NCBI GenBank assembly: GCA_963730155.1
Contig: CAVSQV010000006.1
Span: 22,774 to 86,773 of the forward strand
Direction: 5' to 3'
Length of the DNA stretch: 64,000 nucleotides
DNA from: an uncultured Acidobacteriota bacterium
GTDB lineage: Bacteria; Acidobacteriota; Thermoanaerobaculia; Multivoradales; JBCCEF01
Shown here: positions 2,761 through 8,319 of the stretch, piece after piece
How positions within the stretch are numbered: the stretch's first letter is position 1
Layout: each line of letters begins with the position of its first letter
Program-made: the position numbers and the translations under genes
The notes under the pieces: generated by a model
The model's input: only the letters and a program-made list of their open reading frames with translations
What the model was told of the DNA's origin: nothing
The model's database searches: none

Positions 2761-2819
2761 GGGAGGGGGGAGGGGGAGGGGACTTGACCTCCCCCCACCC
2801 CCACCAGACAATACCCCCC

Positions 2820-3335
2820 ATGACCACCCCCCCCGCCGCCGATCCCCGTGAAGAAGTCCGAATGGAGATCCGGGGCCTCATCCTCGACCCGAGCTCCAGC
2901 CGCCCGATCGTCGTCCTCCGCGACGAGAACAGCCAGGTCGTGCTGCCCATCTGGATCGGCCTCTTCGAGGCCAACGCCATCGCGCAGCGGATCGAGAACG
3001 CCGAGCCCCCGCGTCCGATGACCCACGACCTGATGCAGTCCCTGCTCCAACAGATCGGGGTGGCGATCAAGAAGATCGTGATCTCCGACCTCCGGGACGA
3101 CACCTTCTTCGCCCTGATCCACGTCGACCGCGATGGCCGCGAGATCGAGGTCGACGCCCGGCCCAGCGACGCGATCGCCCTCGCCCTGCGCGCCGATGCG
3201 CCGATCTTCGTCCTCCGGCCGGTCCTCGAGAAGGCCAAGGCCGTCGACCTGGCGGGCCAGGGCACCGACGAGGAGAAGCTCAAGAAGTGGCTCGAAGAGA
3301 TCAGCCCCGAGGACCTCGGCAAGTACACGATGTGA
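2820..3335 (+). CDS. Bifunctional nuclease family protein (DUF151)
   Basis: LPIWIGLFEANAIA, RPMTHDL, IEVDARPSDAIALALR motifs. Start could also be ATG at 2862. Confidence 0.9.
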   Translation: MTTPPAADPREEVRMEIRGLILDPSSSRPIVVLRDENSQVVLPIWIGLFEANAIAQRIENAEPPRPMTHDLMQSLLQQIGVAIKKIVISDLRDDTFFALIHVDRDGREIEVDARPSDAIALALRADAPIFVLRPVLEKAKAVDLAGQGTDEEKLKKWLEEISPEDLGKYTM

Positions 3336-3369
3336 CCCGACCCGTGATCCCGACGGCCGCAATCTCCTC

Positions 3370-3385
3370 TGTCGGCGCGCCGACA
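3370..3385. promoter_or_regulatory. 16-bp perfect palindrome TGTCGGCGCGCCGACA, candidate parS/operator, copy 1
   Basis: Exact palindrome, repeated at 3449-3464, upstream of parA. Same length and TGT..ACA ends as canonical parS TGTTTCACGTGAAACA. Confidence 0.7.
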
Positions 3386-3444
3386 CAGGCCATGACCGGC
3401 CCCGCTCGCAACTTGAAAGCGCCTGGAAAGACAGTGAATTTTGC

Positions 3445-3468
3445 GCGATGTCGGCGCGCCGACATCGC
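3445..3468. promoter_or_regulatory. Candidate parS/operator copy 2 (core 3449-3464, extended to a 24-bp palindrome)
   Basis: GCGATGTCGGCGCGCCGACATCGC is a perfect palindrome, ending 57 bp upstream of the parA ATG. Confidence 0.7.
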
Positions 3469-3525
3469 CCTCGCAATGCCCATGGAGAGCCCTGACCGTC
3501 CCTCGACGGATTCCGCAATCAGCCG

Positions 3526-4284
3526 ATGATCATCGCCATCACCAATCAGAAGGGCGGAGTGGGGAAGACCACGACCGCGATCAACCTCTCGGCGGCCCTG
3601 GCGAGCAAGGGCCTCCGCACGCTACTGGTCGACCTCGACCCGCAGGCCAACAGCTCGATGTCGTTCCTCGACATCCACCAGCCTCGCAAGACGGTCTACG
3701 AGGCCCTCACCGAGAGCGACGTCCACATCGCCGACATCATCGTGCCGTCCGACGGCACGCCCGGGCTCGACATCGCGCCGTCGTCGATCTCGCTCGCCAA
3801 GATCGAAGCCAAGCTGATCGGCGAGCTCGACAGCCACTACCGGCTCAAGGACGAGCTGACGACGCTCCACACACGCTACGACTTCATCATCATCGACACG
3901 CCGCCGACCCTCGGCATCATCACGGTCAACGCCCTGGTCGCGGCCACCCACGTGCTGATCCCGGTGCAGGCCAGCTACTTCGCGCTCGAGGGGACGGACG
4001 ACCTCCTGGAGACAGTGGAGAAGGTCAAGATGCGCGCCAACCCGGAGCTCCAGATCCTCGGCGCGCTGATCACCCTCTACGACAAGCGGACGCTCCTCGC
4101 CAAGGACATCCAGGACCAGGTCCGCGCGGTCTTCGGCGGCCGGGTCTTCGAGACGGTGATCACCAAGAGCGTGCGCCTCGAGGAGAGCCCGGCCTATCGG
4201 GAGTCGATCTTCACCTTCGCGCCGCGATCGAGCGGGGCGTACGAGTACTACCGACTGTCCGAGGAGGTGGTCAGCCGTGTCTGA
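3526..4284 (+). CDS. parA: ParA/Soj family ATPase (no N-terminal HTH)
   Basis: NQKGGVGKTT deviant Walker A, VDLDPQAN, IIDTPP, YDKRT, SVRLEESP. Confidence 0.93.
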   Translation: MIIAITNQKGGVGKTTTAINLSAALASKGLRTLLVDLDPQANSSMSFLDIHQPRKTVYEALTESDVHIADIIVPSDGTPGLDIAPSSISLAKIEAKLIGELDSHYRLKDELTTLHTRYDFIIIDTPPTLGIITVNALVAATHVLIPVQASYFALEGTDDLLETVEKVKMRANPELQILGALITLYDKRTLLAKDIQDQVRAVFGGRVFETVITKSVRLEESPAYRESIFTFAPRSSGAYEYYRLSEEVVSRV

Positions 4285-5179
4285 AGTGACGGCCAAGCGC
4301 AAGGGGCTTCCGGTCCGGGTCAAGATGCGGCACCAGTCGCACTTCGTCGACGAGCTGGCCGCGCGCCACGACGCGCCGGTGGGGAAGATGGTGCCGCTCT
4401 CGTCCATCGAGCCCGACACGAACCAGCCACGGTCCGCGATGGGAGACCTCGGCGACCTGGTCTCGTCGATCCGCTCGAAGGGGGTCCTCGAGCCGATCCT
4501 GGTCCGCCCGAACCCCGACCTCGAGGACGGCCCCGGCGAGCCGAACGCCAAGGCCGCCGCCTACCGCATCATCTCCGGAGAACGCCGCTATCGCGCGGCG
4601 CGCGAGGCCGGCCTGTACGAGGTTCCGGTGGTGGTGATGGAGGTCTCGGAGGAAGAGGCGCTAGAGATCGCCCTGATCGAGAATCTCCAGCGCAAGGACC
4701 TCACGCCGTTCGAGGAGGCGGAGGGTTACCGCGCCCTCGCCGATCGCCACGGCTACACGCAGGAGCAGATCGCGGAAACGGTGGGGAAGGCGCGCACGGT
4801 GATCACCGAGAGCCTCGCTCTCCTCAGCCTGCCGCCGCGGGTGCGCGACACGGCGGAGGCGTTGGGGATCGGCTCGAAGTCGCTGCTGCTCGAGGTGCTC
4901 AAGGTCGGCACTCCGGAGGAGATGGTCCGCCTGCTCGAGGAGGTGGCGTCGCACGGCCTCAACCGCGACGACCTCCGGCGCCGGATGCGCGGCGGCTCGT
5001 CGGCGGGCGGCGGCAAGCGGCGGAAGAAGCCCTACACCTTCCGGTTCAAGGCGGCGGACAAGACTTACTCGCTGGCGCTGAGCTTCCGGCAGTCGGAGGT
5101 GGACCGGGGGGACTTGATCCGTGCGCTCGAGGAGATCCTCCAGAAGCTCCGGCACGAGGCTTCGGCGCCTGCTTCCTGA
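4277..5179 (+). CDS. parB: ParB/Spo0J family CTPase and DNA-binding protein
   Basis: NQPR, GVLEPILVR, IISGERRYRAA (CTP motif), IENLQRKDL, HTH TQEQIAETVGKARTVITESL. Overlaps the parA end. Confidence 0.92.
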   Translation: MSEVTAKRKGLPVRVKMRHQSHFVDELAARHDAPVGKMVPLSSIEPDTNQPRSAMGDLGDLVSSIRSKGVLEPILVRPNPDLEDGPGEPNAKAAAYRIISGERRYRAAREAGLYEVPVVVMEVSEEEALEIALIENLQRKDLTPFEEAEGYRALADRHGYTQEQIAETVGKARTVITESLALLSLPPRVRDTAEALGIGSKSLLLEVLKVGTPEEMVRLLEEVASHGLNRDDLRRRMRGGSSAGGGKRRKKPYTFRFKAADKTYSLALSFRQSEVDRGDLIRALEEILQKLRHEASAPAS

Positions 5180-5230: not shown

Positions 5231-5401
5231 GGCGGCCGGGGCGTGGGGCTCCCTCCCAGGGCACGGCGCCGGCTCTGAGTGGGCGGGTGTCGGTCGGCCG
5301 GCGCCTCGTCAGCCCGCGCGCGGGTCCTTGTCGCCTTCTGAATCGGTGCGTTGAGCGCGCGGGCTGGCGTCCCTGGGAGGGAGCCCCACGCCCCGGCCGC
5401 C
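5231..5401. repeat. MITE/REPIN-like element copy 1, 171 bp, perfect 31-bp terminal inverted repeats
   Basis: 5231-5261 ggcggccggggcgtggggctccctcccaggg is the exact reverse complement of 5371-5401. Confidence 0.85.
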
Positions 5402-5487: not shown

Positions 5488-5515
5488 AGTTGACATAATA
5501 CATCTTATCGGACTC
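5488..5515 (-). other. dif: dif chromosome dimer resolution site (XerC/XerD)
   Basis: Minus strand GAGTCCGATAA-GATGTA-TTATGTCAACT has 11-6-11 architecture. XerD arm matches B. subtilis TTATGTAAACT at 10/11 and E. coli TTATGTTAAAT at 9/11. XerC arm ends ATAA. Intergenic AT-rich islet. Confidence 0.88.
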
Positions 5516-5651: not shown

Positions 5652-5818
5652 GGTCCGGGTCGAGGGCATCCCTCCCAGGGACGCCAGCCCGCGCGCTCAA
5701 CGCACCGATTCGCAAGGCGACAAGGACCCGCGCGCGGGCTGACGAGGCGCCGGCCGACCGACCCCCGCTCACTCAAAGCCGGCGCCGTGCCCTGGGAGGG
5801 ATGCCCTCGACCCGGACC
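5652..5818. repeat. MITE/REPIN-like element copy 2, inverted relative to copy 1, perfect 29-bp terminal inverted repeats
   Basis: Internal ~130 bp is a near-exact reverse complement of copy 1. 5652-5680 ggtccgggtcgagggcatccctcccaggg pairs with 5790-5818. Confidence 0.85.
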
Positions 5819-5904: not shown

Positions 5905-8319
5905 GTGCTGAACGCGCTCAAGCCAGGACGCCTCCTGGACCGCTACCTGGTCGCCGAGATGATCGGCCCGATCGCCCTCGGCTTCCTGATCTACACCGGG
6001 ATCCTCCTGCTGCGCTTCCTCTTCCAGTCCGCCGAGATGATCATCCAGCGCGGCCTGCCCGTTGCGATCGTCGGCCGGCTGGTGGCGTACAGCCTGCCGA
6101 ACATCCTGGTCCTGACCATCCCGATGGCCCTCCTGTTCGGGATCCTCATCGCCCTCGGCCGCCTGTCCTCCGACAGCGAACTGATCGCCCTGCGATCGAG
6201 CGGCATGAGCCTGACCACCCTCTACCGCCCGATCCTCTTCCTCTCCCTCTGCTTCGCCCTGCTCAACACCTACCTGATGGTCAAGCTCCTGCCCCAGGGC
6301 AACCACGCCCTCCAGCAGCTCCGCCTCGAGATCATCACCGAGTCCGTGGCCGCCCAGGTCGAGCCGCGGGTCTTCTACTCCGAGTTCGAAGACACCCTGC
6401 TCTACGTCTTCGAACGCCCGAAGGGCGAAGAGCGGTGGCGCGGCGTGTTCGTCGCCCAGACCCTGCCCACGAGGAAGAACGAGATCACCGTCGCCGAGTG
6501 GGGCCGGATCAAGCTCGACGACAGCGGCGAGCGGGTCATGCTCGAACTGGGCAACGCCTACACCCACCAGGTCGACCTCGACGACCCGGGCACCTACCAC
6601 ATCGACTTCATCCGCCGCGTCGAGAAAGTGCTCGAGGACCGCTTCACCTCCACCCAGCGGGAGAAGATCCTCAGCTCCAAGAGCCTGCGCGAGCTGACCC
6701 TCGACGAGCTCGCCGCCGAGGCCGCCGATCCCGGTGTGGACGCCGAGCAGCGGCGCATGGCGCGGGTCGAGATCCACAAGAAGTTCGCGATCCCGGCCGC
6801 CTGCGTGGTGTTCGGGATCATCGCCCTGCCGCTCGGCTTCAGCAGCCGGCGCGGCGGCAAGGCTTCGGGTTTCGTGCTGTCGCTGGGGGTCTTCGCGCTC
6901 TATTACCTGCTGCTCAACAACGGCGAGAACGCCGCCCGCTACGGCAAGATGGCGCCCTGGGCCGCGATCTGGATGTCGAACATCCTGCTCGCCGTGGCCG
7001 GCTTGCTCCTGCTGATGCGGCGCAACCGGGACAAGAGCCTGATGCTGTCGCGCATCGACCGCTGGGTGCGTGAGGACTTCTGGGGCCGGCTGGTGCGCTT
7101 CCAGCACTGGCGGTCGACCCAGGAGCGGCGGCGGAAAGAGCGGCGGGAGAGCGGCAAGGGGGGCGGCAACGGCGGCCCCGTCCCGGAGGTCGTGCTCCGG
7201 CTCCCCCGCCTGCGCCTGCGCGTGCCCAACACGCTGGATCGCTACGTGGTGCGTCAGTTCGTCCTGGTGTTCGTGCTGGCGGTGCTCTCGGCTCTCGTCC
7301 TCTACATCATCTTCGACCTGGTCGAGAACTTCGACGAGATCCTCGAGAACCGGGTCTCGCGCGGGGTCGTGCTCTCCTACTACAAGTACCTGTCGCTCCA
7401 GATCTTCTACGACACCGCGCCGTTCATGGTGCTGGTGACCGTCCTGATGGCGTTCAGCCTGCTCGCCCGCAGCAACGAGGTCACGGCCTGCAAGGCGCTG
7501 GGGATCTCGCTCTACCGGCTGGCGATCCCGGCGATCGGCGCGGCCGCCGTGGTGATGCTGCTGTCGATGTTCCTCGAAGCCGAGGTGCTGCCGGCCTCGA
7601 ACCGCAAGGTGGCGGAGCTCAAGGACGTGATCAAGGGGCGCGAGACCTCGCGCACCTACCGGCGGGCCGACCGGCAGTGGCTCTTCGGGCAGGACCGGTT
7701 CGTCTACAACTACATGCACTACGACCCGCGGGGCCCGTCCCTGCAGCGCCTCCAGGTGTTCGAGTTCGACCGCGAGCACCGGCTGATCGGCCGATTCTTC
7801 GCCGACCGCGGCACCTACGTCGGCGACGTCGGCGGCGGTGACTGGCGGTTCAACGAGGGGTGGCTGCGCCGCTTCGATGGCGTCCGGGTCACCGAGTTCG
7901 TCGCCCTCGACCGGCCGCGGCGGGTCGACTACCCGGAGACGCCGGAGTTCTTCGACTCCGAGATCCTGCCGCCCGAGCAGATGACCTACGGCGAGCTCCG
8001 GGAGTACATCGGCGATGTCGCCGCCAGCGGCCAGCCGGTGCCCGACCTCAAGGTCGAGCTGTACCAGAAGCTCGCCTACCCGGCGATCTCGCTGGTGATG
8101 GCGTTCGTCGCCCTCCCCTTCGCCTTCCGGCTCGGGCGCCAGGGGGCACTCTACGGGATCGGCGTGTCGCTCGGGCTCGGGTTCCTCTTCTTCGGGATCT
8201 TCGCCTTCTTCACCAAGCTGGGCGCAGCCGGCGCGCTGCCGCCCGGGCTCGCGGTGTGGAGTCCGAACCTGCTGTTCGCGATGTTCGCGGTCTACCTGTT
8301 CCTCGGGGTGCGGACCTGA
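5905..8319 (+). CDS. lptFG: Fused LptF-LptG LPS export permease
   Basis: Two tandem YjgP/YjgQ modules: LDRYLVAE..GRLSSDSELIALRSSG and LDRYVVRQ..RSNEVTACKALGIS. Each has TM3-beta jellyroll-TM3 layout. Confidence 0.9.
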   Translation: MLNALKPGRLLDRYLVAEMIGPIALGFLIYTGILLLRFLFQSAEMIIQRGLPVAIVGRLVAYSLPNILVLTIPMALLFGILIALGRLSSDSELIALRSSGMSLTTLYRPILFLSLCFALLNTYLMVKLLPQGNHALQQLRLEIITESVAAQVEPRVFYSEFEDTLLYVFERPKGEERWRGVFVAQTLPTRKNEITVAEWGRIKLDDSGERVMLELGNAYTHQVDLDDPGTYHIDFIRRVEKVLEDRFTSTQREKILSSKSLRELTLDELAAEAADPGVDAEQRRMARVEIHKKFAIPAACVVFGIIALPLGFSSRRGGKASGFVLSLGVFALYYLLLNNGENAARYGKMAPWAAIWMSNILLAVAGLLLLMRRNRDKSLMLSRIDRWVREDFWGRLVRFQHWRSTQERRRKERRESGKGGGNGGPVPEVVLRLPRLRLRVPNTLDRYVVRQFVLVFVLAVLSALVLYIIFDLVENFDEILENRVSRGVVLSYYKYLSLQIFYDTAPFMVLVTVLMAFSLLARSNEVTACKALGISLYRLAIPAIGAAAVVMLLSMFLEAEVLPASNRKVAELKDVIKGRETSRTYRRADRQWLFGQDRFVYNYMHYDPRGPSLQRLQVFEFDREHRLIGRFFADRGTYVGDVGGGDWRFNEGWLRRFDGVRVTEFVALDRPRRVDYPETPEFFDSEILPPEQMTYGELREYIGDVAASGQPVPDLKVELYQKLAYPAISLVMAFVALPFAFRLGRQGALYGIGVSLGLGFLFFGIFAFFTKLGAAGALPPGLAVWSPNLLFAMFAVYLFLGVRT

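Follow-up and report, generated by a model that had tools for sequence, protein, structure and literature searches.

A second ParAB pair with a probable parS-like palindrome of its own near a dif-like site in Acidobacteriota: a candidate partition system of the chromosome terminus

ParABS systems are known for replication origins and plasmids, and the handling of the chromosome terminus is credited to FtsK–XerCD, MatP and ZapT. The locus considered here, in the 64,000-nucleotide stretch of acidobacterial DNA that we analysed (the window), holds a parA–parB pair preceded by a palindrome with the outline of parS and another core, and it raises the question of which protein this palindrome serves and at what place on the chromosome. 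The palindrome, TGTCGGCGCGCCGACA, is perfect over 16 bp and is present, as the first-pass annotation had stated, in two exact copies 79 bp apart, at 3370–3385 and 3449–3464, between the DUF151 gene and the pair that we call parA2–parB2; like any palindrome, it belongs to neither strand in particular. We designate the copies parS2 as putative loading sites of ParB2. The first is an exact palindrome of a kind kept beside parB2 in related loci. The second is the centre of a perfect 24-bp palindrome (3445–3468), which explains the end coordinate 3468 of that annotation, and it stands where relatives of the same taxonomic order have their upstream copy, of which there is usually just one. The description of a site with the 16-bp length and TGT/ACA ends of parS and a different core was likewise borne out. 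A search of the 6.2-Mb assembly (79% complete) at up to two mismatches returned two exact copies, both in the window, a single match with 1 mismatch and five matches with 2, against an expectation of 0.022–0.023 exact copies per genome under first-, third- and fifth-order Markov models, so the motif is commoner than chance. At three mismatches the window count (2 against 2.74 by chance) does not exceed chance, and the signal therefore lies in the exact copies.

The two genes behind the palindrome have the make-up of a type I ParABS system, with a deviant Walker A ParA encoded together with a ParB whose CTPase fold, HTH and C-terminal dimerisation domain were recognised by Pfam, by the structural model and by fold search. 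parA2 (3526–4284, forward strand) encodes a 252-residue deviant Walker A ATPase without an N-terminal HTH (Pfam AAA_31, E 3e-59), and parB2 (4277–5179, forward strand) a 300-residue protein with an N-terminal GLP..RH..HFV peptide, a CTPase fold, an HTH and a C-terminal beta-beta-alpha domain (Pfam ParB_N and HTH_ParB). In 33 orthologues of ParA2, which are 59–80% identical, KGGVGKTT, D36/D38 and D124 are invariant; in ParB2 so are the CTP-site residues Q50, GERR 101–104, E135 and N136, and the best structural matches of its model (pLDDT 86) are ParB and Noc. The genome has two ParB genes, and the pair in the window is its second system, ParAB2. The origin-side parAB lies 17 kb from dnaA together with two canonical parS-like sites, behind genes that look yidC-, jag- and rsmG-like from their translations; its ParA is 42% identical to ParA2. 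The conserved upstream neighbours of ParAB2 are a miaB-like gene, which ends at 2697, and a bifunctional-nuclease-domain gene (DUF151; 2784–3335, forward strand), and a frequent downstream neighbour, beyond dif, is an lptF/lptG fusion (5905–8319, forward strand). No replication gene and no division gene was found in the conserved neighbourhood.

Relatives of ParB2 with names belong to the Thermoanaerobaculia and other Acidobacteriota. A ParB2 match at E 1e-40 or better was present in 73 of 121 genomes of the phylum and absent from 48, so that the system is dispensable in many lineages; a class search at 1e-20, positive in 251 of 251, also catches canonical ParB and was not taken as a count of ParB2. 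Five genomes marked as unpublished (G004, G104, G135, G175 and G179) enter the tallies only, and no sequence of theirs was used. parA2 is present in 145 of 155 loci, all of which keep the N-terminal peptide of ParB2 or a close variant of it, and the ten loci without parA2, from genus g7 and families f43 and f28, are without the GLP..RH..HFV peptide as well. Such a joint loss is what would be expected of a ParA-binding peptide. At these ten loci (L046–L050 of g7, L141–L142 of f43 and L146–L148 of f28) parB2 has a truncated N-terminus and no adjacent parA2; g7 and f43 keep dif beside parB2, and in f43 the palindrome covers the start of parB2.

Across the phylum the palindrome accompanies the gene. 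In 154 loci chosen from the best-scoring hits, mostly covered over 2.5 kb upstream and 0.6 kb downstream and leaving out L008, L014, L015 and the window's own locus, TGTCGGC-NN-GCCGACA stood beside parB2 within one mismatch in 114, with 46 sites upstream, 44 inside parB2, 15 downstream and 9 in two places, and 40 loci had none. The reversed pattern and canonical parS, of the TGTTTCACGTGAAACA type, were both found at 0 of the 154. Within the taxonomic order of the window, the site lies upstream of parA2, within two mismatches, in all 38 other loci with upstream DNA, and it is thus conserved near orthologous parA genes. On the scale of whole genomes the exact pattern occurs in 41 of 68 (one copy in 37 of them, two copies in 3 and five in 1), a count that still includes four genomes of genus g7 with exact matches about 400 kb from parB2, and the control pattern occurs in 2 of 68. 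All six genomes without a ParB2 hit lack the exact site. The g7 matches, which lie inside one conserved coding sequence, were treated as coincidence and rejected as sites. The genome with five copies, G348, has them spread over 130 kb around dif. One or two sites per genome are few for a centromere; the origin-side parS sites of this genome also number two.

The position of the site is flexible. In family f13 the single site is displaced 23–230 kb from parB2 to a conserved intergenic spot beside rnpB, with an AT-rich IHF-like flank kept, and parB2 itself stays a few kb from dif wherever dif was found. No exact site was found in 21 of 62 ParB2 genomes, and some of the loci without a site are explained by one mismatch, by the variant of family f57 described below, by loss of parA2 or by a more distant site; for families f26 and f48 and genomes G253, G047, G022 and G099 the absence has no explanation. 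In f48 (L126, L128 and L140), where the common site is absent, another palindrome, ACAGACT-NN-AGTCTGT, lies behind parB2, in two copies in L126 and one in L128, and a longer-spaced form of it precedes parA2 in L140; it is possibly a replaced specificity or a terminator. Where the site lies inside parB2 it occupies codons 193–198 (4853–4868 of the window, forward strand, where this genome has none), which spell C-R-x-A-D in 53 of 155 orthologues. All 53 use TGT CGG nnn GCC GAC, although the background use of TGT, CGG, GCC and GAC is 0.24, 0.28, 0.42 and 0.72, and loci that have Cys at the same place and no internal site use TGC in 41 of 47 cases; in a metagenome set, 19 of 20 C-R-x-A-D loci use the same codons. 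Codon use of this kind reflects selection on the DNA. From the sequence comparisons as a whole, the palindrome is very probably the site of ParB2 itself.

How might ParB2 read it? The first-pass annotation had paired the palindrome with an altered recognition helix and proposed a new ParB–parS specificity pair. The helix is indeed altered and has the sequence given there, ARTVITESLALL, at residues 172–183, where the canonical ParB of the same genome has ARPTITNALRLL. In a register taken from the alignment to Thermus Spo0J, the predicted DNA-reading segment, residues 170–204 (4784–4888, forward strand), contains R173 and E178, both present in 155 of 155 orthologues, K/R201 in 151, L204 in 152, and S202. 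We presume, from the parS and NBS sequences, that bases 1 and 6 in the numbering of Jalal et al. correspond to positions 2 and 7 of the 16-mer. According to that paper (PMC7383237), the canonical residues are R173, N178, G201 and R204, guanine 1 is read by R173 and cytosine 6 by R201 of Noc, and a variant combining R173 with R201 prefers a hybrid site. If the mapping is right, the new site would have exactly G and C at the bases read by R173 and R201, and we infer that ParB2 reads the palindrome with R173 on G2, K/R201 on C7 and residue 202 on position 6.

The assignment of residue 202 comes from family f57, in which the change G6A/C11T in the site tracks the change from S to T at this residue, with exceptions. 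Among its 30 loci, those with T202 have TGTCGAC-NN-GTCGACA (19 full and 2 half sites, with 2 loci siteless and no full G form), and those with S202 have the full G form in five, a half site in one and the A form in one; four sister contrasts are found on a tree of ParA and the N-terminal part of ParB, from which the helix was left out. L170 breaks the covariation, and L037, L141 and L142, which do not belong to f57, combine T202 with the G form, so that residue 202 alone is insufficient. T177S was also considered as linked to the variant site and did not hold in the 30 f57 loci. Conservation, this covariation and the plasmid relatives discussed below argue for a non-canonical parS-like site together with an altered DNA-reading surface of ParB, and to this extent the proposed specificity pair stands; the quoted helix does not contain the residues that appear to explain the new core best, since these are 201–204, which lie after it.

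The place of the locus on the chromosome is indicated by a dif-like site, AGTCCGATAA-GATGTA-TTATGTCAACT (5488–5514, reverse strand), which lies 311 bp behind parB2; nothing else in the assembly fits the pattern perfectly. The palindrome locus thus adjoins the presumed terminus. The site is of the same family as acidobacterial dif sites predicted in the supplement of Kono et al. (PMC3025954). It has the 11-6-11 layout of dif and the XerD arm TTATGTNAANT, and such sites number about one per chromosome and lie opposite oriC; it is a predicted dif. Matches fell within the fetched stretch at 84 of 155 parB2 loci, and a genome-wide search gave a match, mostly a single one, in 44 of 62 genomes. ParB2 is present in 40 of these genomes. 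In 36 of the 40 the dif-like match shares a contig with parB2, and in 34 the two are no more than 8 kb apart, the match nearest to parB2 being taken where a genome has several. In single-contig genomes parB2 shares its contig with dnaA, and the distance between the two is 0.416–0.499 of the genome in all 20 (median 0.479; 19 at 0.45 or more), with contigs taken as circular, ten sizes rounded, and 12 of the 20, kin and hence non-independent, coming from one genus that has lost parA2. The eight single-contig genomes outside this main genus give 0.457–0.497. On the window's own 89-kb contig, GC skew and KOPS counts show no clear switch and are uninformative, so that for this genome the placement at the terminus rests on the dif-like site. 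FtsK is present in the assembly, which is error-prone, and a match to XerD above the cut-off was not found in it.

The surroundings of the dif-like site have some peculiarities of their own. It is flanked by inverted 161-bp elements (5236–5396 and 5655–5815), 92% complementary and with internal inverted repeats, of which a partial third copy lies behind miaB (2698–2760); these elements are REP- or MITE-like. A close relative is without 223 bp between parB2 and dif. Elsewhere, at G000:C3:977655-979135, there is another dif-like site, an imperfect one, at a distance of 600 bp from a gene for a tyrosine recombinase; it is possibly the attachment site of an integrated element.

ParAB2 resembles several known systems and coincides with none of them. 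With the chromosomal ParABS systems (Soj/Spo0J–parS; Thermus Spo0J 1vz0, Myxococcus ParB 7bnk, Caulobacter ParB 6t1f/6s6h) it shares the parA–parB operon, a short Soj-type ParA, the CTPase fold with its GERR motif, the HTH, a 16-bp TGT..ACA palindrome and R173. It differs from them in the core of the site, in the changes N178 to E, G201 to K/R and R204 to L, in its N-terminal peptide, in its location at dif and not at oriC and in forming a separate clade, so that by site, location and residues parB2 falls outside the canonical class; the two systems coexist, the canonical sites lying beside the other parAB near dnaA. NBS sites, for their part, are many and avoid ter, whereas ParB2 has one site at ter. 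The Noc–NBS system of Bacillota, as described in PMC7383237, is similar to ParB2 in being a paralogue of changed specificity with a basic residue at 201 and a C at the base recognised by R201 of Noc; Noc, however, is an orphan without ParA and has Q173, K179, K184 and R201, whereas ParB2 has its own ParA encoded next to it, keeps R173, has K/R at 201 and carries S/T/A at 179 and a variable residue at 184. Against the Noc model TIGR04285 ParB2 scored 143.7 bits, with a cut-off of 315. MatP–matS of E. coli and Vibrio and ZapT of Caulobacter also mark the terminus region in a sequence-guided manner; these systems employ many sites in the ter macrodomain and non-ParB proteins, with no ATPase or CTPase motor, while ParAB2 is built on the unrelated ParB, in a ParA/ParB pair, and has one exact site in 37 of the 41 genomes with a match. 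In the open-licence papers searched we found no account of the ParAB2 system or of its motif.

The next relatives of ParB2, taken as 50%-identity representatives, are ParBs with E178, C/Y-R-T-S-D, SKSxLLEI and plasmid-like N-termini, and in PLSDB they match partition genes from plasmids of Nitrosococcus and from replicons of Azospirillaceae, in one case next to repA. As to a location of parAB2 on a secondary replicon, the best PLSDB matches were weak and partial. Three of five plasmid loci hold a 16-bp palindrome of their own in the same parB codons, two of them with a second copy just downstream, and E178 occurs in one of the five. The Nitrosococcus site, AGTCGGACGTCCGACT, shares the GTCGG..CCGAC arms, and the Nitrosococcus ParB has both E178 and SKSxL. 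Plasmid and chromid ParABS systems with parS inside parB (Thermus pTT27 ParABm–parSm, Nitrosococcus pNHAL01, Azospirillum, Indioceanicola) may share with ParAB2 a replicon-specific palindrome in the parB codons that is repeated nearby, and for the Thermus megaplasmid PMC4409726 describes the intragenic parS as replicon-specific and bound specifically. ParAB2 differs from all these in lying on the main chromosome, at the terminus, among housekeeping neighbours and without a rep gene, and in being vertical across the phylum. A metagenomic parA–parB pair (L278) is another member of the intragenic-site family: TATCGGGCGCCCGATA precedes its parA and recurs within its parB, where the residues are Y-R-A-P-D.

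A site variant predicted from C-R-T-S-D was found on 19 viral contigs, with parB beside it in three and no parB within 2 kb in 16; two of the three are near-identical, and in these two the copies lie upstream of parA and inside parB. A search of viral contigs with the ParB2 profile gave no ParB2 member among 80 loci. A metagenome scan for outgroups mostly returned ParB2 itself: 77 of its 80 loci were examined, of which 37 had E178 and 35 were ParB2-like. In a quick tree of 68 rows the ParB2 clade (29 rows, SH-aLRT 97) sits outside the canonical clade (9 rows, 100), between it and the plasmid-type groups; the rows had been selected for their similarity to ParB2, and the tree, being unrooted, gives no direction of transfer. 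Sequence relationships of this kind suggest that ParAB2 was likely captured from a plasmid, the reverse derivation of the plasmid systems from chromosomal ParAB2 being possible, and we infer that a plasmid- or chromid-type cassette took up a permanent place at dif early in the history of the phylum. Outside the Acidobacteriota, one parA–parB pair with E178 (L292:4126-5815) is followed, some 30 bp beyond parB and within AT-rich DNA, by an exact copy of the 16-mer and stands among the chromosomal genes gltX, tatC and fur, with no dif in 10.5 kb; its relatives are named Syntrophorhabdales, Syntrophobacter and Deltaproteobacteria, and Desulfobacterota may use the same site.

We propose that ParB2 loads on parS2 and would form a CTP-gated clamp cluster at the replication terminus, which ParA2 on the nucleoid would position through contact with the N-terminal peptide of ParB2. 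A single ParB2 focus would then be held near mid-cell, the sister foci would be separated once the terminus is replicated, and this separation would help FtsK–XerCD resolution and the clearing of the septum. That CTP-loaded ParB2 spreads at the terminus and is positioned by ParA2 seems to us moderately probable from the conserved sequences and by analogy, the positioning step of the focus being extrapolated from ParABS on plasmids and origins.

A quite different purpose would be transcriptional, since the first-pass annotation had placed a -35 element, TTGAAA (3413–3418, forward strand), between the two copies and suggested that the pair may autoregulate. The hexamer is there, but as a -35 it was rejected: it has no -10 partner, a sigma-70 scan of 3300–3560 found 0 promoters, and the contig of a close relative reads G at 3414, which alters it. 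The same-order loci instead have a conserved sigma-70 promoter, mostly TTGACC-N17/18-TACACT, just before parA2 in 39 of 41, whose counterpart in the window (3492–3525, forward strand) appears eroded, with CTGACC and no TACACT; two related contigs likewise lack a consensus -10. In L004–L045 this promoter ends about 10 bp before the parA2 ATG, so that the parA2 transcript probably has little or no leader. In 23 of the 41 same-order loci an AT-rich element resembling the IHF consensus lies 4–24 bp upstream of the site (mirror position 1 of 41, shuffles 8.9%), and it also accompanies the displaced f13 sites; the window has a weak remnant of it with three mismatches (3429–3441, forward strand). The site might serve mainly as an operator for the control of parAB2 transcription by ParB2 or by some other regulator. 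This could be argued from its place before parA2 in all 38 same-order loci, from the known ability of spreading ParB to silence promoters, and from f13 (L385–L395), where the displaced site is again near a promoter: at all six loci tested it precedes the gene for RNase P RNA by a short distance, about 80–300 bp. Yet the site ends 9–210 bp upstream of the conserved promoter, at variable spacing and never overlapping it, lies inside or behind parB2 in 68 loci, and elsewhere is tens of kb off or, as in G348, repeated five times around dif. A site that moves upstream, inside and downstream of its gene is not a promoter operator, and autoregulation as its point is not upheld; the operator reading is weak and, as the main role, very improbable, although spreading ParB2 could dampen its own operon.

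Positioning of the terminus by ParA2 must also be weighed against readings in which the DNA is not moved. ParB2 bound at ter might be a landmark from which ParA2, acting like MipZ, MinD or PomZ, places or times the septum; many bacteria do have dif at mid-cell in the end, such second uses are common among ATPases of the ParA family, and a single site would be enough for a landmark. ParA2, however, is of the AAA_31/Soj type (E 3e-59, against 2e-13 for MipZ) and without a MinD-like C-terminal membrane helix, the conserved neighbourhood is devoid of division genes and the relatives are replicon partition cassettes, which leaves division control an unlikely role. The ParB2 cluster might otherwise be a scaffold over dif that gates XerCD, FtsK, topoisomerase IV or SMC/Mks, with ParA2 secondary: dif is usually 1–2 kb from the site, within the normal spreading range of ParB, and g7 and f43 keep ParB2 beside dif after the loss of parA2. 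The retention of parA2 in nearly all loci speaks against this, as does f13, in which parB2 is near dif, where dif was found, and the site, at 23–68 kb from parB2, is beyond usual spreading, and we regard a mere scaffold as quite unlikely. Hardly credible, finally, is that a plasmid or second chromosome once fused at dif and left the locus behind as an inert remnant with no present role; the plasmid-type relatives, the fact that parA2 and also the entire locus were lost independently, and the seemingly eroded promoter of this genome would fit it, but the frames are intact, the catalytic residues are invariant across the phylum, the site is under codon-level selection and has been re-created at new positions, and no replication gene is nearby.

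With ParA2-driven positioning of the terminus as the preferred reading, these chromosomes would carry two orthogonal ParABS systems, the second being a domesticated plasmid-type cassette that positions and splits the terminus as a second centromere with a readable residue-to-base code; this wider picture we consider evenly poised between true and false. A ParABS system conserved at dif in one of the most abundant phyla of soil would, if true, give this machine a new use and show a new way in which bacteria without MatP position their termini. The orthogonal ParB–parS pair and its natural specificity variants at position 6 and residue 202 may be usable as a DNA label, and the lineages without parA2 are natural tests of a ParA-free role. 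A plasmid partition cassette has here likely been turned into a core function of the chromosome.
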